Shown: in pieces, positions 10,850-64,000 of the stretch
How the letters are laid out: each line of letters opens with the position of its first letter
Numbering within the stretch: position 1 is the first letter of the stretch
Source of the DNA: Thermodesulfobacteriota bacterium
Lineage (GTDB): Bacteria > Desulfobacterota > WTBG01 > CAIYCZ01 > CAIRTM01
Reading direction: 5' to 3'
Assembly: GCA_028282925.1 (NCBI GenBank)
Contig: JANQGV010000012.1
Coordinates: 7,787 to 71,786 of the forward strand
DNA length: 64,000 nt
Position numbers and translations under genes: made by a program
The notes under the pieces: model-generated
Database searches by the model: none
What the model saw: the letters and a program-made list of their open reading frames with translations, nothing else
Told to the model about the DNA's origin: nothing

Positions 10850-11045
10850 TCAATATCCCTCGGGTAAGCAAATAGGGAAAACGGTGCAAATCCGTTGCGG
10901 ACCCGCCGCTGTAACCCTGTCCTTTTGTGCGATTTGCAAAAAAGGAACCCTTTGGCCGTAATGCCACTGTTCCGATAGGGCGGAATGGGAAGGTGGTCAA
11001 AGGGGCTGGGAAGCCAGAAGACCTGCCCGGGTAATGAGATCCCAA
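10850..11045 (+). promoter_or_regulatory. Cobalamin riboswitch, copy 2
   Basis: AATAGGGAAAACGGTGCAAATCCGTTGCGGACCCGCCGCTGTAACC, ATGCCACTG...GGGAAGGTGG, and B12 box GAAGCCAGAAGACCTGCCCGG. A close paralogue of copy 3. Confidence 0.8.
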
Positions 11046-26525: not shown

Positions 26526-26589
26526 TCCGTTTTTTATCCACGGTCTGGTATTACATGTCCCTGTTTCCCGAGGGCATGTAACGCTTTTT

Positions 26590-26780
26590 ATCCATACAGG
26601 CAGGTCTTCTGGCTTCCCTGCCCTCTGGCCGCCTTCCCATTCCGACACATCGGAACAGTGGCATGCCAGGCCAAAGGGTTCCCTTTTCTACATCAATAGA
26701 CAAGGGTTGGGTTACAGCGGCGGGTCCGCGACGGTTTTGCACCGGCTTCCCTATTAAGCCACACTGTGGCGCCTGTATTT
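26590..26780 (-). promoter_or_regulatory. Cobalamin riboswitch, copy 3 (minus strand)
   Basis: The reverse complement reads AATAGGGAAGCCGGTGCAAAACCGTCGCGGACCCGCCGCTGTAACC ... ATGCCACTGTTCCGATG ... GGGAAGGCGGCC ... GGAAGCCAGAAGACCTGCCTG. Near-identical in core to copy 2. Confidence 0.8.
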
Positions 26781-26851
26781 AATTGTATGTGCCGGGAGCG
26801 CGTGCTCTCCGGTGTAAACACAGCCGTTTATAAAAGGCTATGTGTTTTTTT

Positions 26852-32625: not shown

Positions 32626-32689
32626 TCCTCAAAACTGTGTATTTATTCCGGAATACCACTTTGCCATGTCGGTACGCCGATAAACTATT

Positions 32690-32835
32690 CAAGCAGGTCT
32701 TCTGACTTTCGGATCATCCTAGTTACCGCGCCTTCCCATTCCGGTGAGCCGGAACAGTGGCTTCGCTACGGTTTTCGTCCCCGATTACAGCGGCGGGCCC
32801 GTACCCGAATTTCACGGGATTCCCTTTAACGCTTT
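32690..32835 (-). promoter_or_regulatory. Cobalamin riboswitch, copy 4 (minus strand), paralogue of copy 1
   Basis: The reverse complement contains ACGGGCCCGCCGCTGTAATCGGGGACGAA (29 nt identical to copy 1), GCCACTG...GGGAAGGCGCGG, and B12 box AAGTCAGAAGACCTGC. Confidence 0.8.
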
Positions 32836-32961
32836 TCAGCGCGCTTGAATACCTATTTTAATCACTTTAGCAAAATGGGGGGAAAAGTCAAGATGTATGG
32901 ATTTTTGCCAAAAAACATGCGTGCTGAAGAACAGCAGTGTGCGATTAAAAAGAATTTCCGG

Positions 32962-48026: not shown

Positions 48027-48053
48027 ACGGGTAGTCCTTATATGAGGGTGCCG

Positions 48054-48830
48054 TTATTTGTTTTCTGCCGACAGCAATTCTTCCAGATCGTCAACGGTGA
48101 TGTCGGCCCCGTTTTGGAGCAGCGCGTCACGGTCGCCGGAGCGGTTTACCCCGACAACGAGCCCGAAATTACCGTTTCTGCCTGCCTGAACACCTGAAAT
48201 TGCATCCTCCACCACAACCGCCTGATCCGGAGAAGCACCAAGTATTTCCGCGGCCTTCAGATAGGTATCGGGTGCCGGTTTTCCGGAAAGATTCAAGTGT
48301 CGTGCGACATTTTCGTCCATGATTGTATCAAACAGCTCTTTAATCCCTGCCGCTTCAAGTACGGCCACACAGCTTTTGCTTGACGAAACAACAGCCATTT
48401 TCACTCCGCGTTCTTTGAGATGCCGGACAAGCCTCATCGAGCCGGGATAGGCTTCAACACCGTCGCGTTGAATCACAACATCCACCAGTTCCTTCTTGCG
48501 GTTGCCCAGGCCGCACACTGTTTCCCAATCCGACGGTCCGTCAGGAGAACCCTCAGGAAGCTGAATGCCCCGCGATTTCAGAAAGCTGCGCACACCATCA
48601 TAACGCGGTTTGCCGTCAACATATTCTTTGTAATCATCTTTAATATCAAACTCCGTAACAGGCACACCGGTTTTTTTTGACCGGCGGTGCAAATACTCAT
48701 CAAACATTTCTTTCCAGCAGGCAGCATGGATTTTTGCCGTCGGTGTCAGGACACCGTCAAGATCAAACAATATTGCATGATATTCCTGCAGGTTTGCCGG
48801 CGGCGGGGGTGTGGTATGAGATGAGCCCAT
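48054..48830 (-). CDS. pgmB: Beta-phosphoglucomutase (HAD superfamily)
   Basis: HAD motif I ILFDLDGVLT, motif II SSS, and motif III/IV (K...VEDAISGVQAG). Paired with the GH65 gene. Confidence 0.8.
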   Translation of the reverse strand: MGSSHTTPPPPANLQEYHAILFDLDGVLTPTAKIHAACWKEMFDEYLHRRSKKTGVPVTEFDIKDDYKEYVDGKPRYDGVRSFLKSRGIQLPEGSPDGPSDWETVCGLGNRKKELVDVVIQRDGVEAYPGSMRLVRHLKERGVKMAVVSSSKSCVAVLEAAGIKELFDTIMDENVARHLNLSGKPAPDTYLKAAEILGASPDQAVVVEDAISGVQAGRNGNFGLVVGVNRSGDRDALLQNGADITVDDLEELLSAENK

Positions 48831-49217
48831 AGTAATCCTCCCTTTGGTGTATGATTATAAGCTATAAAAAAACATAGCAGAGATTGTTTTTATTGACAAA
48901 TTTTTATTATGATTCACGGGAGTATAACCCGTCTCCCCGTCTCTCTTCAGCGTAGTTTTTTCGGAGTTGCAGGTTAAGATCATAGGTTCATCTCCCTCTG
49001 TTTTCCGGCCATTTTAATTGTAAAAGCAAACGCAAGAAAGGGCAGCTGGAATTACCATCTTTTTTTTAATGGTCCATGGCTCACCAGTGCGGACTACCTT
49101 CGGCTACTTTGAGAAAAACCGCAATAAATGACAATTAACTTGTCATATTGACAACCTAATTGTCGTATGTTATATATATAAAAAGACAAAGTAATCTATA
49201 CGTAAAAGGAGATTCAG

Positions 49218-49712
49218 ATGAATACAAAAACAGTAGCGAACGAACGCTTCGCCGATTCACCTGGAGTTACTATCAAGCCGCCGCACATATTTTTCATATG
49301 CCTTGTTGCAGGGGGTGTAATGGAAATCGTGTTCCCCTGCCAATTTCCATTCTTACCAATTTCTTTGCGAATTATCCTGGGTGTATTTCTTAGCTGTAGC
49401 GGATTTGCATTTATGACGTGGGCCCATGAAAAATTCAAGAAGATCGAAACCAACGTATCAACCAACCTTCCGGCAACAACTGTAGTCATGCAGGGTGCCT
49501 ATCGCGTATGCCGCAATCCCATGTACGTTGGGGGTTCCATATTTTTTATCGGTTTAGGTGTTGCTTTCGGCAGTATCTGGCTGCTTGGTGCCTATATACC
49601 ACTTGGTTTGTACGTGGCATTATATGTCGTTCCCCGGGAAGAAGCATACATGACCAGGGCGTTCGGCGTTGACTATACAACCTATTGTAATCAGGTAAGA
49701 CGCTGGATTTAA
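49218..49712 (+). CDS. Membrane methyltransferase of the ICMT/PEMT (isoprenylcysteine carboxyl methyltransferase-like) family
   Basis: 4-5 TM segments and the C-terminal motif region GAYRVCRNPMYVGG...EE. Confidence 0.7.
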   Translation: MNTKTVANERFADSPGVTIKPPHIFFICLVAGGVMEIVFPCQFPFLPISLRIILGVFLSCSGFAFMTWAHEKFKKIETNVSTNLPATTVVMQGAYRVCRNPMYVGGSIFFIGLGVAFGSIWLLGAYIPLGLYVALYVVPREEAYMTRAFGVDYTTYCNQVRRWI

Positions 49713-49714
49713 CG

Positions 49715-50188
49715 ATGGCAAAAAAAAACACACTTACGGCTGGAGAGGCGCTACATACCCTGTTTCAGGAGGTTTTCAAATTGCAGGCCTCCTTGTCCGA
49801 CATAATAGACAGGGTCCATGAACATGTCGGGCTAACCACATCGAATTTGAGAATAATGGGAGTGCTGATAGAAAAAGGAGCAGCTTCAGTTCCGGACATT
49901 GCTGCACATTTGGGAGTTTCGCGTCAATTTGTTCAAACCGTTTGCAATGATCTATCGTCCCAGGGATTATTGGAATTCTTTGAAAATCCACGTCATAAAC
50001 GATCAAAGTTGGCAGATTTGACGACGGAAGGACGAGATGCATTTTTTACTGCAAGAAAAAAGGAAAATCAGCTCATTGAAAGGGCCTTACCTCACATTGC
50101 GTCTGATCAGGCGCATGCAGCATCTCAGTTGCTTCACCACATCAATGAAGAACTGAAAAAACGATCCGGGCCAGTGGCACTGCAGTGA
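49715..50188 (+). CDS. MarR-family transcriptional regulator
   Basis: 157 aa, winged HTH (LRIMGVLIEKGAASVPDIAAHLGVSRQFVQTVCNDLSSQGLLE). Confidence 0.75.
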   Translation: MAKKNTLTAGEALHTLFQEVFKLQASLSDIIDRVHEHVGLTTSNLRIMGVLIEKGAASVPDIAAHLGVSRQFVQTVCNDLSSQGLLEFFENPRHKRSKLADLTTEGRDAFFTARKKENQLIERALPHIASDQAHAASQLLHHINEELKKRSGPVALQ

Positions 50189-50260
50189 ATTGTATGGGAA
50201 GAAATATTTTGACAACGCTGACTTAAACACTGATACAGAGTATGGTGTCCGGTCCAGGGG

Positions 50261-52354
50261 TCAAAAAAGTATTCCCTTTATGCGCTGTATTTGATGTACT
50301 GTGCGCCAATGTTTTTGCAGACAGGAAGGCTTTTCGGCCATTTTAGCCATCACTCTGTTTCTGATCCTGTTCTGCAGTCCAGCCTTGATGCTTTTACCGA
50401 ACTTCTCCCCGGAAGGATTTTTAATGATTGTACTCAAGGGTAGATAGTCGGTCATGTTTTGAAACGTGCCAAGTTTATGTTGCTTTTCGAGGTCATCGCC
50501 AACCTGATCAAGGTCCAGATCATGTAACCGTTTGCGAGTCAAAAGTCCTTCTAAGGAAAGTCCATGATATGCATAGTATTCATCAAGCATTCCCGGTTTC
50601 TTGATATCAATCCCTTCCGCCCATGAATCAGGTTCAGGCCTTTTGGTGAAAGTATCCGGCTCTTTTTCCATTCCTCTCAGAATATTAATAGTGCGTTCAA
50701 TCTGATATCCTCGCTCTGCCGCTATCAAGAGGTCCTTGCCGTCGACATCAAATCCTGTCGCAGCCCTTACGGCTTCAGCAATATGTTCAGGAAGCCAGTT
50801 GCCATGGGACAGTAAGGTTTGTGAGAGATAAAAACAGGTGCCTATATTGTCATTGATAAGTTTATAGTTTTCATGCCACCAAACGGCCCTGCCCTTTGCT
50901 GTGTGAGAGGAGGTGTCAAACGTTTGAGGCGTGGCTCCGAAAAGCTCTTGAGCAATGATTTTATCATTTGATTGTGCCAGCAGGTGGGGTATGGCCTTCA
51001 AAAAATCGCCGCCCCTGGTGGAAACGGTAAAGGCTAACACATAGGGAGGGGCCGAATTACCAGGCCAGTGCATACCTTTCATGTGAAGTGCATAGCGGGA
51101 AGCATTGCCCCCGATTTTTTCAGCAGCCGACCTGGTGCCTTCTGCCAATATATTGCCTATGCCCTGGCGGCGGGCGACCTTTTCAGCCACTGTTTCCATC
51201 GCCTTCACAGTGCCCCAATTGAGTTCAAGTTCTTCCATGGTCTTCTTATCAAGACTCCCCTGTTTGCCGGCATCTATGGCCATACCGACGGTTCCTGCAA
51301 ATTCCTTGATGTCGATACCCAGAAGGTTTAGTTTATTGACCAGGTGAAGAATTGAGGGGACATCTCGAATGCCCAGGGTAAGGCCTAAGGACATGATATA
51401 GGCAACTTCATAGCCATATCCTTTTTCACCTTTGAATTGTCCTTCTTTGATGGACCAATGCTTGCCGCATTTTAACGGGCAACGGTAACATCCGTGATCC
51501 TTTGATTCCGTTGCTTCATAATAGGCGCCGATATCAAGGGAGGTGATATCCTCATAGGCGACTTTACAACGGCCGTTATTTGCGTAGATCAATCCTTGTG
51601 CGACCACTGGGTTGATAAACATTGCTGTGCCGTATTTTCTGAATAATTTTGGAAAGGCAAGGTCCTGGGTCCATTGTTTCACGCTATCAGATACTTCTTT
51701 CAGCAAGATCGGGTCTTTTATCATTATTTTATTACTACCGAGTACCACGACGGCCTTTAGCTTTTTGGAACCCATTACCGCCCCCATGCCTGTCTGAGAA
51801 AAGCTGTTGGCGTTATTGTTAGACATGATACATGCATATCTGACCAGATTTTCACCTGCCGGACCAATTGTGGCGACAGCAGCGTTTGGATATTGTGCTT
51901 TTAGTATCTTTTGTGTTGTCAGGGTATCTTTCCCCCACAAATTGCCGGCATCTTCAATGGTACAAACACCATCAGGCCCCAAGAGCAGATAACAGGGTTT
52001 ATCTGAAGCGCCCTTGATCATTATGTGATCATAGCCTGAGCGTTTGACCATAACTCCCAAAAAACCCCCGCCATTGGAGTCTCCAAAAATTCCAGTTAGT
52101 GGGCTTAGTGCGGTAAAGGTAGATCGAGAAGCGGTGGGGAAGGGGGTTCCGACAAGTGGGCCTGTCCCAAAAATGAGAGGGTTTCCCGGATCTAAGGCCT
52201 GCACAGACGGTGTAAGATTCTGGTACAGCAACCATGCATTATGCCCGGCTCCACCGGTAAATTTCAGCAACTCATTTTCTGGAAGTTCAAAGATTTTAGA
52301 TTTTCGTTGGCTCAAATCAATCTCCAGCATTTTCCCTCTATATCCAAATGCCAT
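50261..52354 (-). CDS. aor: Aldehyde:ferredoxin oxidoreductase (tungstopterin AOR family)
   Basis: N-terminal MAFGYRGKMLEIDLS...GGAGHNAWLLY typical of AOR; 697 aa; [4Fe-4S] Cys ligands (CYRCPLKC). RBS present. Confidence 0.85.
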   Translation of the reverse strand: MAFGYRGKMLEIDLSQRKSKIFELPENELLKFTGGAGHNAWLLYQNLTPSVQALDPGNPLIFGTGPLVGTPFPTASRSTFTALSPLTGIFGDSNGGGFLGVMVKRSGYDHIMIKGASDKPCYLLLGPDGVCTIEDAGNLWGKDTLTTQKILKAQYPNAAVATIGPAGENLVRYACIMSNNNANSFSQTGMGAVMGSKKLKAVVVLGSNKIMIKDPILLKEVSDSVKQWTQDLAFPKLFRKYGTAMFINPVVAQGLIYANNGRCKVAYEDITSLDIGAYYEATESKDHGCYRCPLKCGKHWSIKEGQFKGEKGYGYEVAYIMSLGLTLGIRDVPSILHLVNKLNLLGIDIKEFAGTVGMAIDAGKQGSLDKKTMEELELNWGTVKAMETVAEKVARRQGIGNILAEGTRSAAEKIGGNASRYALHMKGMHWPGNSAPPYVLAFTVSTRGGDFLKAIPHLLAQSNDKIIAQELFGATPQTFDTSSHTAKGRAVWWHENYKLINDNIGTCFYLSQTLLSHGNWLPEHIAEAVRAATGFDVDGKDLLIAAERGYQIERTINILRGMEKEPDTFTKRPEPDSWAEGIDIKKPGMLDEYYAYHGLSLEGLLTRKRLHDLDLDQVGDDLEKQHKLGTFQNMTDYLPLSTIIKNPSGEKFGKSIKAGLQNRIRNRVMAKMAEKPSCLQKHWRTVHQIQRIKGILF

Positions 52355-52423
52355 GATTTTGCTCCCTTTTTATTTTTTTTGCGGCCGATAAAACCAGGCT
52401 TTGTCGTTCATAGTTTGGATTAG

Positions 52424-52438
52424 GCAACCGACGTGCCA
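52424..52438 (-). promoter_or_regulatory. Sigma-54 (-24/-12) promoter driving aor
   Basis: The minus strand reads TGGCACGTCGGTTGC, which is TGGCAC-N5-TTGC. It lies ~70 nt upstream of the aor start, and a divergent sigma-54 activator gene is adjacent. Confidence 0.65.
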
Positions 52439-52613
52439 AAGCGCTTGATAAAAAATTGTCATTTAATATCAATTATTTATGGTCCGCCAAAAGAATTATA
52501 TGAAAAAGAGCAAATATTATGTGCCATAAAAAACAGTTCTGACTGTATAATATGATAGATATGCATTGCAAGTGCCAAATATGACAAAATTAACGTGCGT
52601 TTAGGAGGAAAGA

Positions 52614-54167
52614 ATGTTGGTAGATGAAAAAGTTTTTTTCCGAGAGGCCACCCTTAGAATTTCCAGCAGCCTGGAGATTGAAAAAGCGTTATGGCAATGC
52701 TTACTCTATATTCAACATTTTGTTCCTGCAGAAGAAGCCTATATGCACTACTATGACCCCGTCTCAGGCGCCTCAATCATATTTGTTGGGGCTGACAGCC
52801 AACAGGGTAAGCTCCTAAATCTCAGCGCTCCCTGGCCCAATGAGTTCCGTGCTCAGGCAGAGCGTGGCCAATTCCCCAAAGCCTTTATTGCAAACAGGGC
52901 TGATGAGCACCCTATGGCTCAGCCAATACTCAAGGCCTTGAAAAAAGGAAAATCATCAATAATGACGGTTCGCCTGACCCTTGAGGATGATTGGGTGGGT
53001 GGTGTGTCCTTTTGGGCAGGCAATCGGGAAAAATTTAATGCGGAACAGTTGGAACTTCTCTCTCTTCTAAGGCAGCCGTTGGCTATTGCCCTCTCAAACA
53101 GCCGCAGGTATCGAGAGCTTCTGGAACTTAAGAATTTGCTGGCAGACGACAACCGCTACCTTCAGAACGAACTTCGTCAAATAAGCGGCGGTGAAATTAT
53201 CGGTGCGGACTTTGGGTTAAGGAGGGTCATGGACCTGGTGCGCCAGGTTGCCCCGCTTGATAGTCCGGTGATTCTTCTGGGAGAGACAGGAACAGGCAAA
53301 GAGCTTTTTGCCAATGCAATTCATAACCTTTCCACCAGGAGTGCAGGTCCTTTTATCAAAGTCAATTGCGGAGCGATTCCGGATAGCCTCATGGACAGCG
53401 AGCTTTTCGGCCATGAAAAAGGTGCCTTTACCGGAGCCATTTCCCAAAAGCGCGGACGCTTTGAAAGAGCAGATGGTGGCACTATCTTTCTTGATGAAAT
53501 CGGAGAATTGTCCCCTGAAGCACAAGTCAGGCTATTGAGAGTGTTACAGGAAAAAGAAATTGAACGTGTGGGCGGTAACAAACCCTTACAGTTGGATATC
53601 AGGGTCATTGCTGCGACACATCGAAACCTTCAGACTATGCTTGAAAAGGGTGAGTTTCGGGAAGACCTTTTTTTCCGGCTACAGGTTTTTCCCATCGCCA
53701 TTCCACCGCTTAGAGAGAGGGTTGACGATATCCCAAACCTGGTGCAACATTTTATGCAAAAGAAAGCGCGTGAAATGAAATTGACGGCAATCCCTACTTT
53801 GGCACCTGCTGCAATAAATCTTTTAATGACCTATTTGTGGCCGGGCAATGTCCGAGAGCTTGAAAACGCGGTGGAACGGGCTTTAATCCTCAGCCGGGGA
53901 AATCCCCTTAGCTTTTCTGAGTTTCAGTCGTTTACAGATAAGTTCCACGATAGCAACAGGTTGCAACCCCTTGAAGCAAAGGAACCTTTGAATCTGGATT
54001 GTGTAATTGCACATCATATTCAAAGGGTTCTCAAAATGACCGGAGGGAGAGTAGAGGGCAAGGGTGGAACGGCGGAGCTGCTGGGGATAAAGGCCAGTAC
54101 TCTTAGGAATCGCATGCGAAAGCTGTCTATACCCTTTGGAAGGAAAGCTGATAGATCGAATACATAA
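52614..54167 (+). CDS. Sigma-54-dependent transcriptional activator (GAF-like sensor + AAA+ sigma-54 interaction domain + Fis-type HTH)
   Basis: Walker A GETGTGKELFA, GAFTGA motif (EKGAFTGA), Walker B IFLDEIGEL, and a C-terminal HTH. RBS AGGAGGAAAGA. Possible extended -10 promoter TGTATAAT at 52546-52553. Confidence 0.9.
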   Translation: MLVDEKVFFREATLRISSSLEIEKALWQCLLYIQHFVPAEEAYMHYYDPVSGASIIFVGADSQQGKLLNLSAPWPNEFRAQAERGQFPKAFIANRADEHPMAQPILKALKKGKSSIMTVRLTLEDDWVGGVSFWAGNREKFNAEQLELLSLLRQPLAIALSNSRRYRELLELKNLLADDNRYLQNELRQISGGEIIGADFGLRRVMDLVRQVAPLDSPVILLGETGTGKELFANAIHNLSTRSAGPFIKVNCGAIPDSLMDSELFGHEKGAFTGAISQKRGRFERADGGTIFLDEIGELSPEAQVRLLRVLQEKEIERVGGNKPLQLDIRVIAATHRNLQTMLEKGEFREDLFFRLQVFPIAIPPLRERVDDIPNLVQHFMQKKAREMKLTAIPTLAPAAINLLMTYLWPGNVRELENAVERALILSRGNPLSFSEFQSFTDKFHDSNRLQPLEAKEPLNLDCVIAHHIQRVLKMTGGRVEGKGGTAELLGIKASTLRNRMRKLSIPFGRKADRSNT

Positions 54168-54250
54168 GATCTCTTAAAATGATAAGATTCGTGGAGAAAG
54201 CGGTGGCGTTTTTTTGAAGGGCGGATTTTTAATTTATTTAATTATGAAAT

Positions 54251-54280
54251 AATGGTAGAGGCGGGGGGAGGCAAACACCC
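54251..54280. repeat. Degenerate copy of a tRNA/tmRNA 3'-end-like attachment-site repeat (direct repeat copy 1)
   Basis: AATGGTAGAGGCGGGGGGAGGCAAAC compared with AATGGTGGAGGCGGGGGGAGTCGAAC at 58132: about 24 of 27 positions identical, same orientation, 3.85 kb apart. Confidence 0.5.
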
Positions 54281-54533
54281 GTCCGAGAGTCCACCAGGGT
54301 AACATCTACATGCTTATCCCTGATTTGACGTTTCGCCTTTAAGTGTCTGCCAGTAGCAGGACCCTATTACAGACTATCGGGAAAAATGCGACAGATTGAT
54401 CCTCTTTTCTCTTCTTCCGTATGCCGACGGACTTATTGACATACACGCCAACCTCGGTTAAAATTTAATAACCGCAAGCAGCAGCGTATCATGTGTCAAT
54501 CTGTACGGCCACGACGGCCTCGAAAGTAAGAAC

Positions 54534-55202
54534 ATGGGTGTATCCAACTCTTCCGCTTCAAAAAAGAAATTTATTCACTTTTTGGCGATCCTTTTCACCG
54601 GAGGGGTAATCGGCTTGTTTGTCTGTGGCCGGTTTATGGACTTGTCGCCGGAAGCCTTCCATGCCTTCATTGGGTCTCTTGGGCTTCTCGGTCCGGTAAT
54701 CTATATCAGTCTCTTCATTATCCGGCCGTTTTTCCTTATCTCGTCAATCGCCCTCTTTATTGCCGGCGGCCTGGCATTCGGGCCGGTGTTGGGGCCTTCA
54801 TTTGCCGCTTTTGGTGCGGCTATCGGCGGTTCAATTGGTTTTTTCTTCGCCAGATTCATGGGGCATGAGTATATCTATGGTAAACTGAAAACCAAAAAGC
54901 ATTTCATCGAAAATCAAAACTTCTCTTTTTCAATTGTCCTGTTATTAAGCCTGCTGCCTCTTATGCCGGTAACCCTCATCAATATCGGGGCCGGGCTATC
55001 GGATATGAAGTACAGGCCCTATATTCTTGCCCATATGCTGGGCGTTACGCCACGGGCTTTCGCGTACGGCTTTTTCGGCAGCACGCTTTTTGCAACCGGA
55101 ACCCTGAAATTTAAAATCGCGCTGATCCTTATCCTGATTATGGTTCTCGTAACAGGGTACTATACGCGAAAATCAAAAAAACAAAGCCGGGAATCTGCTT
55201 GA
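54534..55202 (+). CDS. DedA/TVP38/TMEM64-family membrane protein
   Basis: 222 aa, 5-6 TM segments, with a glycine-rich re-entrant motif region (LFIAGGLAFGPVLG). Confidence 0.7.
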   Translation: MGVSNSSASKKKFIHFLAILFTGGVIGLFVCGRFMDLSPEAFHAFIGSLGLLGPVIYISLFIIRPFFLISSIALFIAGGLAFGPVLGPSFAAFGAAIGGSIGFFFARFMGHEYIYGKLKTKKHFIENQNFSFSIVLLLSLLPLMPVTLINIGAGLSDMKYRPYILAHMLGVTPRAFAYGFFGSTLFATGTLKFKIALILILIMVLVTGYYTRKSKKQSRESA

Positions 55203-55314
55203 ATGTGCGCCGGTTTCCGGGAGAGTTGAGAACCGTGCGTGACTGTTCACGCCTCGTACAGTCCTCCTGTATGTTATCCGGCTTCCCAATGACACCTTTG
55301 GCACTTCAACCATC

Positions 55315-56022
55315 ATGCATGCTCAATCCACAAAACAGTTGACAAAAGACGGTACAAAAACGCTGATTGCCCCGTTCCGGTGGACGGCTGCGATGGCGCT
55401 CTGTTTCTTTCTGGCTGCGGGTCGGCTGGATGTTCCCAGGGCCTGGCTGTTTTTCGGCATCTATCTTACCGGCGCAATTGCGGGCGCAGCGATCATGCGG
55501 CGCTATGCCCCGGATCTGGCAAACCGGCGGGCCTCGATCAAGGAGGGAACCAAGACCTGGGACAAGGTGTTTTTGGCTGTATACTTCCTGATCTCATTGT
55601 TTGTCGCCCCGATAGTTGCCGGTCTGGATGTGGGCAGATACCAGTGGTCGTATCTGGGGCCGTCATTCGCAATCATCGGTTTCGTCCTCTATGCCGCTTC
55701 GTTTGTGCTGGCATACTGGGCAATGGTGGTAAATGAACATTTTGAAGCAACCGTTCGAATTCAAACAGACCGGGGCCATAAGGTCATTACCACAGGGCCG
55801 TATCGATTTGTGAGGCATCCGGGCTACCTGGGTATGATCATCGGCGGGTTCGGGGTCTCGTTTCTTCTCGGCTCAGCCTACTCGCTCATTCCCGTTGCCG
55901 GAGCAACACTTGCCGTGGTGGTCCGGACGTATCTTGAAGACCGGCTGCTGTGCAACGAGCTGGAGGGATATGCCGACTATGCCCGGACAACCCGGTACCG
56001 GCTGATAATCGGTGTCTGGTGA
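55315..56022 (+). CDS. Membrane methyltransferase of the ICMT/PEMT family (distant paralogue of ORF 49218-49712)
   Basis: Multiple TM segments and the C-terminal motif GPYRFVRHPGYLGMIIGGFG...EDRLL...E. Confidence 0.7.
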   Translation: MHAQSTKQLTKDGTKTLIAPFRWTAAMALCFFLAAGRLDVPRAWLFFGIYLTGAIAGAAIMRRYAPDLANRRASIKEGTKTWDKVFLAVYFLISLFVAPIVAGLDVGRYQWSYLGPSFAIIGFVLYAASFVLAYWAMVVNEHFEATVRIQTDRGHKVITTGPYRFVRHPGYLGMIIGGFGVSFLLGSAYSLIPVAGATLAVVVRTYLEDRLLCNELEGYADYARTTRYRLIIGVW

Positions 56023-56170
56023 AAAAGAGTGTCAGGCCTTTTTGCCGTGACCGGCGGTGGGCAGGCGGTTTGAAACGTATTGAATCAGATTCGTATTTGT
56101 GTGGATACGTATCCCTCAAACTCAATTCCTGAGTCCTTTGATATATCTTTGCCGGACACAATTTTTCTCT

Positions 56171-57829
56171 TTACCGGTTGCACCCATATCCTTTGATAAT
56201 TTCTCCCCATTTTGCATCCACCTGTGCCAGGGCGTCAGGCGCCCCCTGTTCAAGCAGCGTGCGGTTCAGCTCCGGATACACATCCGGGCCGCCCTCTTCG
56301 GGCCATTGCCGGGTGGCGTCGATAACGATCTTGCTGGTCTTGCCGCGCACCTTCGAGCTTGGGTCCAGAGGTAAGCCCCGCGCCTCCTTGATAATGTGAC
56401 TGGCGGTGCCGGGCAGCCAGCGCGTGATAAGGGAATTATCCACCTGGGCCGAGTCCAGGATATCGATATCCTCGTCCACAACGATCACCACCTTGAAGAT
56501 CGGTACCATAGAGGCCAGCTTTTTGCCGGCTTCGAGGCCCTGGCCCGCGGCCGTTTTTTTTATCCGGACATATGTTAGGCCGGGAGCGTGGACCGGGGAA
56601 TGCAGCTCGATCAGCTGAGGAATGAACCGCTTAAATGCAGTGTTGAAAATCACTGCGGTGGGGCCTGTGACGAATCCCCGGGTCGCACCGGTAAACACAT
56701 TCAGGAGCCAGGGGTCTTGGCGGTGGGTCACCGTCGTGACGTTCATGAAAAAGTTCTCTTTCTTCTGCGGTCCCAGATAACCGCACATCTCGCCAAAAGG
56801 TCCCTCGGGAAGTCCGGGCTGGTCCAGCGGGATTTCACCCTTAATGACGAGCTCCGCGTGAGCAGGAACCAGAATATCGCTGGTTTCACAGCGCACGACT
56901 TCCAGCGCCTTGCCCCGCAGCCCGCCTGCTATGGCCAGCTCGTCGATGGGTCCCTTGCGCCTGCGATTGGCAACCTTTGAGCCGCTGACCACCCATACAT
57001 AGGGATCCTGGCCCAGCACAAGCGCGACTTTGGCGCTTTTTTCGCCCCGCTTTTTGGCCGCCATCAGATGTTTCCAGCCGGTCTGGTTCGGTTCGGGATT
57101 GATGCCGATGATACGGGGCCCCCGGAGCTGGCATCGATAGGTGCCGAAATTCATTCCCATCTTCGGGTCAGAGGTAAAAACCGAGGCCGAGTTGATGTAG
57201 CGCCCTCCATCGGAAGGGTTGCTCTGTATAAAGGCAAAGCGGGTGACATCGACCTCATTCCCCCGCAGCACGACCTGTTTACACAGGGCCTGTTCCTTTT
57301 GAACTTCAATAGGCTTGATCGGCGGATACTCGCCTTTCTTCAACCGCCCCTGAAGGTGAGCCATTGCTTTGCGATAGGTCCCGCGGGGGTCACCGGGAAT
57401 CGGCTCCACTCCGAAGAGGATAGCTTCGGTATCCAGGTGCCCCTGGTGATTAGCAACCAGCGGCCCCCGGACCCACTGTCCGTTGATTTTAACCTGTTCG
57501 GCCAAAATTGCCGGTGCTTCTTCATGGCCGTATTCATCAATAAGCCGGTACATCAGGGCGCTCATTTCATAGGCATCCTGATCCAGTTTTTCAAAGCGCA
57601 GCAAAAGGCCGCGTTCCTCAAGGGCCCTGACATAGTCACGAAAGGTGTCGAACGGCGCCGACAAGGTGGCCGTTCGCGATGTTGTGCCTGCACCTGATGC
57701 AGGGGAGGGGGATCGGGTCCCTAATACGCAGCCGGCGGTGACAGCGGCTACGCCGACAGCGCCGGTGGTCAGAAAGTTACGTCGGGATATGCTGCAACTG
57801 CTTTTTACGGAGTGCGTTTTTTCAGCCAT
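56171..57829 (-). CDS. UbiD-family (prFMN-dependent) decarboxylase with a twin-arginine (Tat) signal peptide. True start MAEKTH at 57829, with a GGAGG RBS
   Basis: Tat motif SRRNFLTTGAVGVAAVTAG. UbiD core with EGPFGEMCGYLG (compare the canonical EGPFGExTGYY) and ELAIAGGLRGKALEVV. Confidence 0.8.
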   Translation of the reverse strand: MAEKTHSVKSSCSISRRNFLTTGAVGVAAVTAGCVLGTRSPSPASGAGTTSRTATLSAPFDTFRDYVRALEERGLLLRFEKLDQDAYEMSALMYRLIDEYGHEEAPAILAEQVKINGQWVRGPLVANHQGHLDTEAILFGVEPIPGDPRGTYRKAMAHLQGRLKKGEYPPIKPIEVQKEQALCKQVVLRGNEVDVTRFAFIQSNPSDGGRYINSASVFTSDPKMGMNFGTYRCQLRGPRIIGINPEPNQTGWKHLMAAKKRGEKSAKVALVLGQDPYVWVVSGSKVANRRRKGPIDELAIAGGLRGKALEVVRCETSDILVPAHAELVIKGEIPLDQPGLPEGPFGEMCGYLGPQKKENFFMNVTTVTHRQDPWLLNVFTGATRGFVTGPTAVIFNTAFKRFIPQLIELHSPVHAPGLTYVRIKKTAAGQGLEAGKKLASMVPIFKVVIVVDEDIDILDSAQVDNSLITRWLPGTASHIIKEARGLPLDPSSKVRGKTSKIVIDATRQWPEEGGPDVYPELNRTLLEQGAPDALAQVDAKWGEIIKGYGCNR

Positions 57830-58074
57830 GGATAACCTCCATTGGGTGGAAAAAGAAAAGATTGTTAAATTAATCAATGTATAGTGAGATGTCTTTTTGA
57901 TGATTAATTTTAAGTGGAAAATATAGATAAAACACATTGATGTGTCAATAGAAGTGAACCTGCCCTTTGCAAGAACTAAAATCCGAATGATTTTTGCCTA
58001 ACAATATACTGGGACGAATAAGGGACATAATTATTTTCAGGAAGGATGGTTTTCTATTAAACATGGCGGTGGTG

Positions 58075-58138
58075 CACCATTCGACTCACGTTGTTCACTC
58101 AGGGTTTACCATGAGCGAGCGTAGCGAGTCGAATGGTG
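58075..58138. repeat. Long imperfect hairpin (13-bp arms, ~38-nt loop) abutting the att-like repeat
   Basis: CACCATTCGACTC at 58075-58087 is the reverse complement of GAGTCGAATGGTG at 58126-58138. The GAGTCGAA core recurs a third time at 58151. Confidence 0.45.
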
Positions 58139-58158
58139 GAGGCGGGGGGAGTCGAACA
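58136..58158 (-). repeat. Fragment of the 3' terminus of a tRNA/tmRNA (T-loop, T-stem 3' half, acceptor 3' half, ACCA), probably an attachment-site scar at the island boundary
   Basis: The reverse complement reads TTCGACT-CCCCC-CGCCTCC-A-CCA: a T-loop fitting TTCRANY, five Cs, a 7-nt acceptor half, discriminator A, then CCA. It has no matching 5' half (no GGGGG before the T-loop), so it is a 3' fragment and not a gene. The AT-rich DNA begins at 58161. Confidence 0.55.
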
Positions 58159-58324
58159 TGGCATCTATATATTTGTAATATAATAATTATATATAGAATT
58201 TAGTTTTCATGTACCCCCAGTTAAAGTTAATGCCCCCTGGAAATGTAAAGAGTATCCTAGTAGCAAGTATACACTCTGGGTCGCATGGAATTAAAGCTTT
58301 CCGTGGAGCGATCGCTACCAGGGG

Positions 58325-59398
58325 CTATAATATTTCGTACTTCCAATAATCTTTAATCGGGATTCCGTAATCGTTGGCATTTTTTAAGTCATAGGTAACT
58401 TCAAAAGTGCAACACATGCATTTTATCTGCCAGCTGTATTTATATGCCCGCTCATATCTACCATCAGGGGTCTCTCCTTCCACCTCAATATTATCATAAA
58501 CGACCAAGGCCGTTACTCCGCACACAGGACATTTATCTATTTGTTCAAAATGATTTTTTTGGGCTTGTGCTGCAGCTTCTGACTGTTTGATTATCTCGTT
58601 ATTTAAGAACTTTCCATGCATTTTTTCATCTGTAATTGGATTTTCGTATGCTGCTCTACCTAGTGCTTTTGCATAAGCGAATTTACCGACATCATAATCA
58701 TTTTTTTCATTATATAGAAAATCCAAAGGATCAAAATTTATATTCAACGGTTTGTATTTCCATAATATGTTTCGCCCCCTATATCTATCTAGTGCAATAA
58801 CTTTTCTCAAAAAGGGTAAAAAATATTTGCAGATGAATTTGTCTAATGAATCATATCTCAGAATAAAGGATCCTCTATGCCAAATTCTGTTTCTTAGGGT
58901 ATTTAACTTTTCCAACATATTTTTTTTATCAATGATGAATTGATATGATAAATGATTTTCAATTTCTTCATTTTTTATAAGATCAGCTAACCTTTTTAAT
59001 GACTCCGAAAATTCGATTGATCTGATGCCTGATTCTTCTTCGGGTCTTAACTGTTCCCCGGTGAGAAGTTTTTTTAAGACTATTGTTTGTGTTGAGGCAG
59101 TGTCTGCCAACAATGGATGTACGGTCCTGAGAATATCTTTTATTATAAGTTCTGTAAAATGATGAAGGTGTAATATGGTTTCAGCTGCATATTCAAAATA
59201 CTCAAAATGTGTGTTGAAGTCCTTTTTTTCGTTATCTTCATCATTCATGAAAACACTTAGGCTATACTTCATTGCTTTATACGTAGAAAAGTAGGCATGA
59301 AGTCCAAGCCTAAGCGAATAAAATGCAAACCCAGCGATGTTTTTTTCTCTTTTGTCTAATAGTATACCGTCTTTACAAATTCTGGAAAGTTCTAACAT
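58325..59398 (-). CDS. Hypothetical protein with a HEPN-like Rx4H motif and a C-terminal Cys4 zinc-ribbon; candidate Abi/defence RNase
   Basis: LRNRIWHRG contains the R-N-x3-H motif typical of the HEPN family. C-terminal CPVCG...(26 aa)...CMCC. AT-rich codon usage like the rest of the island. Confidence 0.5.
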   Translation of the reverse strand: MLELSRICKDGILLDKREKNIAGFAFYSLRLGLHAYFSTYKAMKYSLSVFMNDEDNEKKDFNTHFEYFEYAAETILHLHHFTELIIKDILRTVHPLLADTASTQTIVLKKLLTGEQLRPEEESGIRSIEFSESLKRLADLIKNEEIENHLSYQFIIDKKNMLEKLNTLRNRIWHRGSFILRYDSLDKFICKYFLPFLRKVIALDRYRGRNILWKYKPLNINFDPLDFLYNEKNDYDVGKFAYAKALGRAAYENPITDEKMHGKFLNNEIIKQSEAAAQAQKNHFEQIDKCPVCGVTALVVYDNIEVEGETPDGRYERAYKYSWQIKCMCCTFEVTYDLKNANDYGIPIKDYWKYEIL

Positions 59399-59603
59399 TT
59401 TTTTTGATCCCTATAAGCTATTTAATTTGTCCGTATCTCAATCTAGGTGTCGCACTCATCGGACTCTTCACCGTTGATACACCCTTCATGAGATGCGTAT
59501 GATGTATTGAGAACACCGTCTTCATGGTACATCTCTGCTTTCCTTTCTCTAATCATGAGGCGTGTTCCGAATCGTGACAGTGGGTTAATGTTAGGTTTTA
59601 GCT

Positions 59604-62531
59604 TCAGCCCTTAAGTAATTCTCGAAATTCAAGATAACCACGACTGCCCAGATAATGAATAAAATCCTCAGCCGCTGAAGCTGCTGGTGATCGTAGAACC
59701 TTTATCAAGATAGACTTTGCATGGTCACGCCAGCCATATACGCCCCAGCCTTCCCGATCACCTCTAGCCATCAGTTCAAGGCAGGTAACAGTCTCGGTTG
59801 GCATTGAAGGAGCAAGTTCTTCTAGCTTTTCCAACACTTCGTCTTCCGGCTCAATCTTCCCGGCGATCCTTATTGCTTCAATCAATTGTGCCAGTGCCCA
59901 GCAATCATCATAAACACCTGAAGCAAACCACCATCCGAATTCTCGCATTTCATATTTATACTTGTCATGTTCCGCACTCTCTTTGGCAGCTGCAAGTCTC
60001 TCTTCCCAAAATAGTTTTAAACGATCTAGGATTTCAGGCAATACTGTTTGCTTATAATCATACAAGCTTCGACCTACGTATTCTACAGCATCTCCCCGTA
60101 GTTCAGGGTCTGCCTTTTCCCAAAATTGATCAAATATAACCCTAGTTTCTTCACCGCTAAGTTTGCCTCGCCAATAAAGTGTCATTACATGCTCAGCGAG
60201 ATGCCTGTCCGCATCATATATGCTGTGACCGCTACCCTGTATATCAATCTGCTTAACAGCATACTTGTACTGGTCTGTAAGTAATTCAAAGACATTATCA
60301 TACACGGAACAGTAAACAACGTAAGTATTCCATGCTGCATAAAAATATTTTTCAGAAAGGTTATCCAATGGAAAGATGTTGAATATCTGCTCAGCAGACC
60401 AACTAGAATCAAGCAGAACCAGCCAGGGGAACCATTGACCATAGACGGCCCTGATTGCAATGGAGGGATCTTTTGATACATCAAGATGGCGCTCAAGCAT
60501 TGTTCGCACTTCTTGCATTTCATCAAAGCCACGGCTGATAAGCTCTGGTGAATCAGATTGCTTATCAAAATATCGTCGGAGCCAAAGAGCATAACGCACA
60601 ACAGCATGCATTGCTTCACCGCGGGTCGTGTTGATAGAAAGGGTAACCGGATCCAAGTTTTCATCACCATACTGTTCTTCATCCTCCGGTGCCGGATCAG
60701 GGTCGTCTGTCAGCGACTCAAGTATTTGCCATACGATTTCACGATCTTCTATAGCAAAGCCTCCAACCTCTTCATCGAACCCAGCTGACAAAAGTCCTGC
60801 AATGGCCTTCCGAGTCCAGCCCCAGTCAGGGTCCATATCAAAATCCTTGTCTGGCCTGCCAGGTATCTCGTGTGGCTGATCCATTATCCAGCGGCAAAGA
60901 TCAATTACAGATTTCCATTGAAAATATTTACCTAATTTTAAAGCCGATTGAAGACCGGATAACAATGACCGCACATATGTTGGATCAAGTTCTTTAAAAG
61001 AATGGGCGTTTTTTGCATATGTTTCTGGGTTTTGAGTTGCAATCGCGGAAAGTTCTCTGCCCAAACCTTCAGGAGAAGATTTAAAAGGACCCTCAGGCGG
61101 TGCCCATGTTCTGAGGAATTCGACAAGTTCTTCAATCGACATTTTTTTTAAATTTTCAGCGTTTACAGGGCTTGTCGGCCCTACCCAACTGCATGTGATT
61201 CTTCCCTCAGGTTTTGGTTCTCCATATTCTGATACCAATTTATCATAATACGTTTTCCAGCCTTCAGGCAGACTCTCTTTAATCCAATTGAGCCGAAAAA
61301 GTTGCCAGGTCTTTGTATATCGTGCGTTGTCATCATCGGTAACCTTTTCGCCGGTTCTCCGTTCTCTACTTTGTTTATATGAAGCCACTTCCGGTCCTTG
61401 TTCAATCCAACTCAATATTTTTTGTTTCTGCGCAATAGTTAAATTATCAAAATGTTCTCTGATTAACAGCGAATATTCATGTTCTAAGCATCGGTCATTG
61501 AACAGTTCCATAGATGTAAGATAGTTTGCAGCTGTCTCCGGAACAACATTAGAGTACAATCGTAGTATGTGGAGGGATATGCGTTTGAAAATTTTCCATG
61601 GATAGCGTTCAAGTGTTTGAATTAGTACAGGAACTTTGGATGTATCCTGCTGTGCAATCTGCTCAGCCCCAGCACGTACTGCTTTAACCAAGGCATGGTT
61701 GATTCTGCGGCCACGGTTCTGTTCATTCTCCTCAACAGACGGGCGCCATATATAGGAATAATCTTCAAAACCGTTATCCTTTGTATTTCTGCCTGACAAG
61801 TCAATGTAGGATTGCAGCAGATCACAGAACAGCTCTAACGCTTCAAAATCACCTGCTCGAACAAGCTCGGGCATAATCTTTTCTAGAATTTTATTATATT
61901 GGTAATTATCAAACCTGGCTTTTGGCTCATAAGGATAACTATGTTTTTGTTCTTTCTCTGAATCGTTTTTTGAATGTGAATCCGGCAGGATTTCAAACAT
62001 CACCCGGGCCAAGTCCAAAGCAGACGCTGTTTGTCCACCCTTTGCCAAGTTTACTATAAAGTGAGCAAGTTTTTCTGTAAGTGACATTTGATATTTTGTG
62101 CCCGCCCAAGTTTTAGCTTTATCCAGTAATCTGACAGAAATTTCAGGCGGCATCTTAATGGCCACATCCGCAAGGTCTTCATACACCCGGACATTATTCG
62201 TATCCGGTATCTGCAAAACAATTGCAAGAACCTTTTCCGGTTCGATTGCAGCCATCCGAGCCAGATAGCGTGATTCTGGCCAAGGGGGTAGGCTGATTGT
62301 TCCTTTAACTTCATCAATCTCAGCTTTTGGTGGTTTTGTAAAAAAACCCTCTGTTTTAAGGGGGTCTATCCACTCAGGAGCATCAAGTCGATCAAAAAAG
62401 TACTTGCAAACACCTTCATCTTCTATAAGTTTTTTTATTCTCTCTAAGCTATCTGCAATTGGATGTTGTATGAGCAATCTATCTATTTCGCTTATTCTGT
62501 TAAAAAATTTATCTTGGCTCAATTCACCCAC
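59604..62531 (-). CDS. Large (975 aa) all-helical protein, translationally coupled downstream of the SIR2 gene; candidate sensor/partner subunit (DSR2 C-terminal-domain analogue?)
   Basis: No Walker A/B or other catalytic motif. Trp-rich and predicted alpha-helical throughout. Its start codon lies 7 nt after the SIR2 stop. Confidence 0.6.
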   Translation of the reverse strand: MGELSQDKFFNRISEIDRLLIQHPIADSLERIKKLIEDEGVCKYFFDRLDAPEWIDPLKTEGFFTKPPKAEIDEVKGTISLPPWPESRYLARMAAIEPEKVLAIVLQIPDTNNVRVYEDLADVAIKMPPEISVRLLDKAKTWAGTKYQMSLTEKLAHFIVNLAKGGQTASALDLARVMFEILPDSHSKNDSEKEQKHSYPYEPKARFDNYQYNKILEKIMPELVRAGDFEALELFCDLLQSYIDLSGRNTKDNGFEDYSYIWRPSVEENEQNRGRRINHALVKAVRAGAEQIAQQDTSKVPVLIQTLERYPWKIFKRISLHILRLYSNVVPETAANYLTSMELFNDRCLEHEYSLLIREHFDNLTIAQKQKILSWIEQGPEVASYKQSRERRTGEKVTDDDNARYTKTWQLFRLNWIKESLPEGWKTYYDKLVSEYGEPKPEGRITCSWVGPTSPVNAENLKKMSIEELVEFLRTWAPPEGPFKSSPEGLGRELSAIATQNPETYAKNAHSFKELDPTYVRSLLSGLQSALKLGKYFQWKSVIDLCRWIMDQPHEIPGRPDKDFDMDPDWGWTRKAIAGLLSAGFDEEVGGFAIEDREIVWQILESLTDDPDPAPEDEEQYGDENLDPVTLSINTTRGEAMHAVVRYALWLRRYFDKQSDSPELISRGFDEMQEVRTMLERHLDVSKDPSIAIRAVYGQWFPWLVLLDSSWSAEQIFNIFPLDNLSEKYFYAAWNTYVVYCSVYDNVFELLTDQYKYAVKQIDIQGSGHSIYDADRHLAEHVMTLYWRGKLSGEETRVIFDQFWEKADPELRGDAVEYVGRSLYDYKQTVLPEILDRLKLFWEERLAAAKESAEHDKYKYEMREFGWWFASGVYDDCWALAQLIEAIRIAGKIEPEDEVLEKLEELAPSMPTETVTCLELMARGDREGWGVYGWRDHAKSILIKVLRSPAASAAEDFIHYLGSRGYLEFRELLKG

Positions 62532-62537
62532 CTCCCT

Positions 62538-63434
62538 TTATATGTCAAAGCCACTTTTAAAAGGTGCTGGCCTTTTTTTCATATCACTATGTTCAACACA
62601 TCCGCGTAGTATTTCTTCAAGCCCCCTAAAATCATCACCTTTTGGATCAAATATGATTGGTTCAATTTCCAAAGCGCTAAAAAGGGCTATCATTTCATCA
62701 TATTCTTCTTTTTGTTCCCCAGTCTTTTGATTTAATGCCGGCCACAAAATGTGTTTAGTAAATATTTTCGATATGCTTGTTTTTGGTTTGATCTCCAATT
62801 GAATTGTATTCGCATATGTGATTAACTCACTAAGATATCTTTCTGTTGGATTAAACCCAATGAATAACACTTTTTCATAAACAAAAAGGTTCAGTAAAAA
62901 CCCTGGCAATAAGCTTTCTTTGCCATACGCACCTTTAAAAGCCCTTTGACCAAAAATCAATTTGTGGTGTTCGTAATTATTCTTTTCAGAGTCATAGCAT
63001 CCATGAATATAATACAAAGCCTGTTCCAACCCTTTCGACATAGATATATCTGGATAAGCATATCTTGCATTGATATCTTCATGCCTGAAGTGATTCTCAA
63101 CCCAAGGATCAAAATTTGTTGTGATAAAAGCTTTAAAAGGGAGTCGTGGTATATAATTTAAAGCTGGTCTGGAAGTTGCAATGTCTTTTGGGAAGAATTC
63201 TTGAAATGTTTTTTCATATTCTGATGGATTAGCATCAAAACATGCATCAATAACCTGTGGTAGGTTCTCAGAGTCAAAATCAACCCTACAACGGTCTGCA
63301 ATTTTCTTAACGCTTTCTTTCCATAGCTCCCCCGGAGGAATAGATAATCCTGCACCAAAAAAGACAATACAGTCCCCACCTAAAACAACTTTTTTTATTT
63401 TGTCAATCGCATCTGTTTCTGCAGTGCGTTTCAT
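62538..63434 (-). CDS. SIR2-family (defence-type SIR2_2-like) NADase-domain protein
   Basis: Rossmann motif VFFGAGLSIPPGELW, ITTNFDPW (compare TTNYD of ThsA/DSR2 SIR2 domains), catalytic-His context YYIHGCYD, and VLFIGFNP (compare FIGYS). 298 aa. Confidence 0.75.
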   Translation of the reverse strand: MKRTAETDAIDKIKKVVLGGDCIVFFGAGLSIPPGELWKESVKKIADRCRVDFDSENLPQVIDACFDANPSEYEKTFQEFFPKDIATSRPALNYIPRLPFKAFITTNFDPWVENHFRHEDINARYAYPDISMSKGLEQALYYIHGCYDSEKNNYEHHKLIFGQRAFKGAYGKESLLPGFLLNLFVYEKVLFIGFNPTERYLSELITYANTIQLEIKPKTSISKIFTKHILWPALNQKTGEQKEEYDEMIALFSALEIEPIIFDPKGDDFRGLEEILRGCVEHSDMKKRPAPFKSGFDI

Positions 63435-63607
63435 TGCACTTCACCTCGGGGAAATTTCATCAGAGACGGACAGTCGTTGGACTACAAAATTGATTCATTT
63501 CAGGTTTATGTGTTTGCTTATTTCCCGCAACAAAATAGTTATCAAATTAATACATATGATGCTTTTTATTTTTCTGAGCGAAAAAAATAAGGATGTCCTT
63601 ATGTATT

Positions 63608-64000
63608 TCAAGAGCTCGATCCGGGGTGCGCGAATGTTGTTTCGCGAGTTATTTTGTTTTCTTTTTCCAGATGAACCAAAACCCAAGGTAATATTTTGTT
63701 CAAAGCCTTTTCATTAGGGTAAGCAGTAATTAGAGAATTTTCAATTTCAGTTTTTCCTGCTTCTGAATTTTCAATCAATAGCTCTGAGGTTTCGGGCGGG
63801 ATGTATTCATAAATATTAAATTTTTGCTTAATAAAAAACAGATTTTCATTGATTACGGGAATTGCTCTTTGCTGCTGTTCGGCGTTTAATGCGTTTAAAA
63901 GTGTTTCTGTCAGATATACTCCATGTGGTAACCCGACCATGGCATCATGTGCATATTGGATCCCCCTGCCACCACATAGACTTACGCTTGTATGTTGTGA
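63608..64000 (-). CDS. Hypothetical protein, 5' end beyond the window (the frame stays open through 64000)
   Basis: Minus-strand reading frame with no stop between 63940 and 64000 (…STTYKRKSMWWQGIQYAHDAMVGLPHGVYL…). Upstream of, and in the same orientation as, the SIR2 operon. Confidence 0.4.
   Translation of the reverse strand, partial: SQHTSVSLCGGRGIQYAHDAMVGLPHGVYLTETLLNALNAEQQQRAIPVINENLFFIKQKFNIYEYIPPETSELLIENSEAGKTEIENSLITAYPNEKALNKILPWVLVHLEKENKITRETTFAHPGSSS

Follow-up and report, generated by a model that had tools for sequence, protein, structure and literature searches.

A candidate array of decayed integrative elements at the tmRNA gene of an uncultured Thermodesulfobacteriota bacterium

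Two G-rich repeats in a 64,000-nucleotide (nt) stretch of DNA from an uncultured Thermodesulfobacteriota bacterium (GenBank assembly GCA_028282925.1, contig JANQGV010000012.1, forward-strand positions 7,787 to 71,786; the whole stretch is called the window here, and positions are counted from its first letter) are leftovers of the 3' end of a transfer-messenger RNA (tmRNA) gene, ssrA, both lying on the minus strand in the same orientation. The left one, copy A, ends a 116-nt remnant, and the right one, copy B, is a short fragment cut at the T loop; between them lies block A, which encodes a DedA protein, a membrane methyltransferase, and a UbiD-family decarboxylase. Beyond copy B follows a compositionally foreign segment, island B, which runs out of the window to a third copy of the tmRNA end. 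An earlier, sequence-only reading of this DNA had taken the repeats for traces of serial integration at a single tRNA gene. Our preferred interpretation, of moderate confidence, is that two or more decayed integrative elements form an array in the ssrA 3' end between ~54.4 and ~68.1 kb, with block A inserted. Two puzzling G-rich repeats are now explained as scars left at a tRNA or tmRNA gene (tDNA).

Copies of the tmRNA gene end

The direct repeats claimed in the sequence-only reading are present: AATGGTAGAGGCGGGGGGAGGCAAACA at 54251-54277 and AATGGTGGAGGCGGGGGGAGTCGAACA at 58132-58158 are identical in 24 of 27 bases, and in a pairwise comparison the similarity between copies A and B ends at both edges of the 27-mer. 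The 23-mer TTCGACTCCCCCCGCCTCCACCA, searched with up to three mismatches, has just two occurrences in the window, at 54253-54275 and 58134-58156 on the minus strand, and had no hit in 100 dinucleotide shuffles of the window. Significance against the background of G-rich motifs had been named in advance as a point on which the proposal might fail, and the 23-mer carries it; the G-rich 14-mer core alone (two mismatches) is not significant, giving at least two hits in 13 of 100 shuffles. The frequency of that core is what speaks for a chance likeness of G-rich motifs, an explanation to which we attach a negligible probability and which is refuted by the 23-mer shuffles together with the tmRNA profile match, the likeness to tmRNA having been obtained for copies A and B independently. 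The repeat unit itself had to be redrawn: copy B is a short T-loop-to-CCA fragment, copy A is the end of the 116-nt tmRNA-derived stretch, and both are meaningful on the minus strand.

Copy A (54253-54368, minus strand) comprises the decayed 3'-terminal 116 nt of a tmRNA gene. It was recognized with an nhmmer profile built from five intact tmRNAs of related uncultured Deltaproteobacteria (contigs L012, L021, L023, L024, and L025), all with the tag ADDYNYALAA; window positions 54368-54257 aligned with positions 249-360 of the 361-position model (50.2 bits, E 4.6e-15). The remnant contains the end of pseudoknot 4 (PK4), UAAGCAUGUAG in the 3' strand of P2, GGAC, the T arm, and the acceptor 3' strand with ACCA, of which UAAGCAUGUAG, CGGACGGG, and the acceptor strand with its ACCA are retained. 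Its T loop reads TTTGCCT, compared with the expected TTCGACT (TTCGAC or TTCAAC in copy B and the clade tmRNAs), and it shares ~73% identity with clade tmRNAs, which over this stretch agree with each other at 93-96%. Copy A is the more mutated of the two copies, as had been predicted for the older, outer one.

Upstream of 54390, tmRNA similarity is no better than in shuffles, and the profile search found the 5' two-thirds of the gene absent, with no 5' strand, tag reading frame, or PK1-3 in the window. A full tmRNA pseudogene was considered and rejected on this ground and because a DedA promoter module begins at 54419, which confines copy A to at most 54253-54418. On its other side, the flank at 54168-54252 reads TTATTTCATAATTAAATAAATT... 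on the minus strand and reaches the stop codon of a sigma-54 activator gene (52614-54167, plus strand); flank alignment showed it to be unrelated to the DNA beyond copy B, beyond the third copy (copy C), and in L012 and L013. Given its outer position and this distinct flank leading to the sigma-54 activator, copy A fits the original chromosomal end. Short probes for an intact tmRNA of this type failed to find one: a 26-mer matched nothing in metagenome contigs, and of two 20-mers run against viral contigs, one matched nothing and the other gave a single chance hit to a non-tmRNA sequence (L030).

Copy B (58134-58157, minus strand) reads GTTCGACTCCCCCCGCCTCCACCA and consists of the T loop, the 3' half of the T stem, the acceptor 3' strand, and ACCA, as the displaced-fragment (attR-type) end of island B. 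Its tmRNA homology begins exactly at the T loop (TTCGACT), and an orphan fragment in another metagenome-assembled genome (MAG; L013) starts at the identical point. After the CCA come 26 nt, TTCGACTCGCTACGCTCGCTCATGGT (58108-58133, minus strand), that recur at positions 20-45 of the contig L001, after the L012 tmRNA, and after the L013 fragment. An imperfect 31-nt inverted repeat (58075-58138, 77% complementary) overlaps the end of copy B and contains GAGTCGAATGGTG twice; in the window this motif is found only there, and in the collected loci only at tmRNA 3' ends or fragments. The flank motif GAGTCGAAKGGTG was also tried as a genome-wide repetitive extragenic palindrome and rejected, since it occurs solely at copies of the tmRNA end.

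The third copy lies 4.1 kb past the window on L001, a Logan contig from the same sample that is 100% identical to window positions 61254-64000 and extends 4,128 nt beyond. Its positions 1-45 hold the last 19 nt of a tmRNA followed by the 26-nt flank, TTCGACTCGCTnnGCTCGCTCATGGT, and match window positions 58152-58108 at 43 of 45 positions. The visible end of this resident tmRNA is identical to the clade (L012) type, and L001 1-545 is collinear with the DNA after the intact L012 tmRNA, including a 99-amino-acid (aa) GIY-YIG gene. By this collinearity, a full tmRNA gene on the minus strand most probably precedes L001, just outside the window.

A 30-mer spanning the tmRNA end and flank matched two other MAGs, L012 and L013, in a scan of genome contigs, and a 34-mer of the copy-B type had no hit in viral contigs. 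In L013 (700-1563, CAZFIB010000045), a HicB-type antitoxin gene and a small open reading frame (ORF), possibly HicA, come before the orphan T-loop-to-CCA fragment, which shares the 26-nt flank; an addiction-module antidote gene and then a DDE transposase come after it. The fragment indicates that a T-loop-targeting element, probably of the same kind, was also present in that genome.

Among related MAGs, the DNA after the tmRNA gene exists in two unrelated versions, as seen by comparing L001 1-545, L012 3370-3990, L021 8338-9508, L025 ~9000-9506, and window positions 58075-58138. Version one has no encoded CCA and carries a GTCTTCGCG...CGCGAAGAC hairpin; version two has an encoded CCA followed by TTCGACTCGCTnnGCTCGCTCATGGTG, short palindromic repeats of the GAGTCGAAKGGTG type, and a GIY-YIG gene of ~99 aa. 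The proximal flank and GIY-YIG gene are common to L001 and L012 and are not found in L021 or L025, and they may form an exchangeable module at the ssrA 3' end, possibly one of a homing type. L012, a version-two locus, has no displaced fragment on the 3.9 kb of contig downstream of its tmRNA. The 297-aa protein encoded upstream of the L012 tmRNA has 45 homologues; the loci reached through them (L021-L025 and L029) belong to other lineages, and their neighbouring genes are all absent from the window.

Integrase remnants and the origin of the array

Island B occupies 58158-64000 (minus strand) and continues for ~4.1 kb to L001 position 1, ~10 kb in total. Its composition is strongly atypical: the G+C content (GC) is 0.31-0.46, and the tetranucleotide distance to the remainder of the window is 0.40-0.48, where the core does not exceed 0.296. 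At the tmRNA-proximal end of the island (L001 609-749) lies a 46-codon integrase stub (MSFEVIGKMFGHSDIRTTQKYAQV...) that contains GHSDIRTTQKYAQV and matches positions 146-169 of the 172-position Pfam Phage_integrase model with an E value of 0.0025, below the cut-off. Its tail, GQNYFQEG followed by a stop codon, has a counterpart at 58022-58048 (plus strand), ~110 nt from copy B, where a 27-nt vestige of a tyrosine-recombinase tail (..GHNYFQEG, stop codon lost) is identical to L001 610-636 at 26 of 27 nt (E 8.5e-9). This near-identity suggests that a second, related integrase gene once adjoined the tmRNA end that is now copy B, and it supports the presence of a probable tandem array of related elements. 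The stub and the vestige are all that remains of an intact tyrosine integrase for each unit, and Pfam detected no integrase domain among the ORFs of 54-64 kb.

Islands in tDNAs are recognized by a regenerated tDNA and a displaced 3' fragment, with crossover in the T loop as a published signature (PMC4383910), and tandem tDNA arrays have been documented (PMC3146451, PMC7192596). An element entering a tDNA supplies its own copy of the gene's 3' end and pushes the old end to its far side, such that repeated entry leaves a row of 3'-end fragments in direct orientation. On the array interpretation, copy B and its 26-nt flank would be the fragment displaced by the youngest element, island B, through a T-loop crossover, and the vestige beside it would be the remainder of an earlier, related element that adjoined the gene before island B arrived. 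Copy A would then be the oldest displaced ssrA 3' end, still at the original downstream flank with the sigma-54 activator and decaying free of selection. The DedA, ICMT/PEMT, and Tat-UbiD genes would belong to inserted DNA, brought as cargo or accreted later, in a unit that has lost its integrase and is now fixed. The nested order expected by the sequence-only reading, from fragment A through block A, fragment B, and island B to the tDNA end, was found as such, except that the full tDNA gene is absent from the window. Block A sits between two tDNA fragments, with the integrase vestige at the expected end.

Several observations weigh against this interpretation. Copy A reaches ~92 nt beyond the T-loop crossover of copy B, and a T-loop crossover with the specificity of island B would have left only ~24 nt there; the integrase vestige on the copy B side has almost the same tail as the T-loop-type one, yet copy A is long. 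One simple repeat integration thus cannot explain copy A, and extra events must be assumed. In this respect serial integration at one tDNA stands only in part, with fragments of the same tDNA, the vestige, and the third copy on its side and the length of copy A against a simple repeat. The divergence of copy A implies either great age or a different origin. Block A is fully host-typical in composition (GC 0.537; tetranucleotide distance 0.178, compared with 0.190 +/- 0.032 for the core), offering no compositional sign of foreign origin, and the earlier description of it as composition-ameliorated adds nothing. It encodes ordinary membrane and enzyme functions and has no Pfam-detected mobility gene beyond the 27-nt vestige; island status for the block is putative. 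Moreover, the resident tmRNA is known only from its last 19 nt, on L001, and no insertion-free close relative was found among homologues of the sigma-54 activator and of the tmRNA neighbours.

The event that created copy A would therefore have differed in kind from T-loop integration, or deletions inside the array would have followed. Three ways out can be envisaged, which the data cannot separate. The oldest event may have cut at least 116 nt from the 3' end at a noncanonical site; all or much of a tmRNA gene may have come in with an element, with the native copy left to decay; or deletions within the array may have removed another fragment together with most of two elements.

A related but unlikely explanation is that ssrA was replaced. 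A native tmRNA gene would have stood at ~54253-54615 beside DedA, been superseded by an element-borne gene, whole or in large part, of the L012 type, and, once redundant, lost its 5' two-thirds in place and decayed; DedA, ICMT/PEMT, and perhaps UbiD would be native, and only DNA to the right of ~57.9 kb would be foreign. Such a history would agree with a 116-nt copy A that is ~27% diverged from the clade type while the resident end is identical to it, with the native composition of block A, and with the distribution of the proximal flank and GIY-YIG gene, whose presence in L012 and not in L021 or L025 implies that the module passes from one genome to another. There is also a reported case, cited in PMC7192596, in which an island-borne tmRNA took the place of a disrupted one. 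The replacement history would require, however, that the element did not target the native gene and yet landed 3.9 kb away from it in matching orientation. The DNA upstream of DedA differs in a homologous contig, L027, with no sign of a tmRNA in the 66 nt available; UbiD has different neighbours in relatives; and the window holds no 5' piece of a tmRNA. Avoidance of conserved motifs by the mismatches of copy A would have pointed to a once-functional foreign allele, but their clustering away from those motifs is not significant (P about 0.09-0.29). The replacement described by Mao et al. in 2009, as far as it is cited in PMC7192596, is comparable in that it would explain a long, nonrestoring fragment of an older allele by inserted DNA, and it differs in that no island-borne full tmRNA and no 5' fragment of the old gene are seen here. 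It is likewise improbable, in our estimation, that copy A is the fossil of the lineage's own tmRNA 3' third, displaced when an element exchanged at least 116 nt, or the whole of ssrA, for the L012 type. Were this so, part of a core RNA gene would have been replaced horizontally through a noncanonical crossover in PK4/P2, instead of the usual restoration of 20-45 nt.

We regard two further origins for copy A as less credible. It is quite doubtful that copy A was never part of this genome's ssrA and arrived as a passenger attachment-site scar in a composite element or array from another host. Tandem arrays can be mobilized jointly by accretion (PMC3146451), elements can carry tmRNA fragments elsewhere (SopE-phi, PMC7192596), and copy A is strongly diverged from the local type; yet copy A is outermost, its flank is unlike the element-associated flank, as the original chromosomal end would be, and nothing to its left looks like another fragment or element end. 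That copy A belongs to a functional structured RNA, for instance a tRNA-like element or a tmRNA that is divergent or made in two pieces, appears very improbable indeed. The intactness of UAAGCAUGUAG, CGGACGGG, and the acceptor 3' strand with ACCA could be cited in its favor, but ARAGORN found no tRNA or tmRNA anywhere in the window, copy A included. Rfam at gathering thresholds reported no tmRNA in the window (only four cobalamin riboswitches), and a permissive search with the tmRNA model (RF00023) scored copy A at 12.4 bits, as a 5'-truncated match, where the gathering score is 47. The altered T loop, the missing 5' acceptor strand, tag reading frame, and PK1-3, and the occupation of the upstream space by the conserved DedA promoter module also speak against function. 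We thus retain the array of decayed elements as the preferred reading, on which a full ssrA gene would precede L001, block A would be inserted, and copy A would have arisen by a cut at least 116 nt from the 3' end.

Relation to described tDNA islands

The locus resembles the islands found by Islander and TIGER (PMC4383910, PMC7192596) in its tmRNA target, in the direct-orientation 3' fragments downstream of it, and in the T-loop crossover of copy B, as well as in an integrase gene, here a stub, beside the tDNA end, several units in a row, and greater damage in the outer copies. Copies A and B, both ending in ACCA, lie in the same orientation on the gene's 3' side, downstream of the L001 copy, which is where Islander expects a displaced fragment. 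Of the canonical integration subsites, copy B uses the T loop, its homology starting at TTCGACT, and copy A runs ~92 nt further upstream, past both the T-loop and junction subsites. By foreign character, the strongly atypical island B and the typical block A part company. Unlike those islands, neither unit here has an intact integrase, such that both would fail the Islander integrase filter, and the tDNA is seen only as a 19-nt end. The anticodon-loop subsite has no obvious counterpart in tmRNA.

Tandem ssrA arrays are well known from earlier work, with some of their units having no integration genes (PMC3146451, PMC7192596). The closest parallel lies in the tandem ssrA islands of Dehalococcoides (PMC3146451), in which the ssrA 3' end is likewise repeated several times in direct orientation over tens of kilobases downstream, bounding the islands, insertion is at the T loop, and some units lack integration modules and are deemed fixed or mobilizable in cis. 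They differ in having the serine recombinase DsiB and a 20-bp repeat; here there are remnants of tyrosine recombinases, a repeat that includes 26 nt past the CCA, and one fragment of 116 nt.

The locus is a decayed example of a well-described kind, with only the 116-nt fragment unusual, and it leaves the current understanding of such islands unchallenged. From its length, that fragment hints at a possible exchange of more than the usual short ssrA 3' end. Arrays with decayed integrases escape standard island finders, and the practical gain here is in annotation, since ~14 kb beside ssrA in an uncultured genome of the Thermodesulfobacteriota, or Deltaproteobacteria-like, can now be marked as probable accreted DNA.

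Genes of the array and its left neighborhood

The genes named for block A in the sequence-only reading, encoding a DedA protein, a PEMT-like methyltransferase, and a UbiD decarboxylase with a twin-arginine translocation (Tat) signal, all agree with Pfam. The DedA/VTT module spans 54419-55273 (plus strand), with a coding sequence from 54534 or 54615 to 55202 (VTT_dom, 1.1e-18) and, in a promoter scan, a promoter-like TTGACA-17-TAAAAT at 54436-54464. Two JGI contigs, L026 and L027, carry the module at 81-83% nucleotide identity, with homology stopping at 54419 and 55273; in L026 the gene downstream of DedA differs from that in the window. The methyltransferase (55315-56022, plus strand) is a 235-aa membrane protein of the ICMT/PEMT family (ICMT, 5.2e-12; PEMT, 1.8e-10). 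The window has a second PEMT-family gene near 49.2 kb, but recent paralogy was rejected, since the two are only 30% identical over 83 aa.

The UbiD-family gene (56171-57937, minus strand) matches UbiD (6.6e-51), UbiD_C, and TAT_signal; its longest ORF has 588 aa, and a likely start near 57832 gives 553 aa. The twin-arginine export signal points to an unusual location for UbiD, a cytoplasmic family of enzymes dependent on prenylated flavin mononucleotide (prFMN), and homologues at 86-89% identity share this annotation in several Deltaproteobacteria MAGs. Window positions 56171-57902 are 86% identical in nucleotide sequence to a gene in other Deltaproteobacteria MAGs (L014-L020), where the neighbors encode RecQ, an amidohydrolase, and metallophosphoesterases, and where no DedA, PEMT, or tmRNA gene is nearby. 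Block A is thus modular, which favors its having been inserted, in that both DedA and UbiD have homologues elsewhere at 81-86% nucleotide identity, with other neighbors, no tmRNA close by, and abrupt borders.

Within the window, island B encodes three proteins on the minus strand. The first, of 357 aa (58325-59398), has no family match. The second (59604-62531) is a 975-aa protein resembling the C-terminal part of defense-associated sirtuin 1 (DSR1; PADLOC Dsr1, E 4.2e-57, model positions 295-1119 of 1,227), and the third (62538-63434) is a 298-aa SIR2 protein with Pfam SIR2_2 and PADLOC SIR2/ThsA-type hits. Both the SIR2 part and the long C-terminal part match Dsr1 models of PADLOC-DB, on two adjacent ORFs. 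In contrast to DSR1 as modeled there, the gene is split, and judged by these matches the cargo looks like a putative DSR1 antiphage gene broken into two ORFs (59604-63434).

To the left of copy A, the closest homologues of the sigma-54 activator are 74% (L004-L007) and 66% (L008-L011) identical, with unrelated neighbors and no tmRNA, which makes them uninformative for the synteny comparison suggested in the sequence-only reading. The best of them reaches 74% identity in protein and 72% in DNA, compared with the 81-86% nucleotide identity of the DedA and UbiD homologues. The segment from 48000 to 54200 encodes a HAD hydrolase, a 164-aa PEMT-family protein, a MarR protein, an aldehyde:ferredoxin oxidoreductase, and the sigma-54 activator. 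Outside the island, no other part of the window has so low a GC (0.45-0.46) or so large a dinucleotide deviation, and the segment may itself be accessory DNA. Further left, the four cobalamin riboswitches lie within 32 kb, at 986-1175 and 10800-11044 on the plus strand and at 26582-26791 and 32675-32863 on the minus strand, with scores of 85-109 bits against a gathering score of 31.5.

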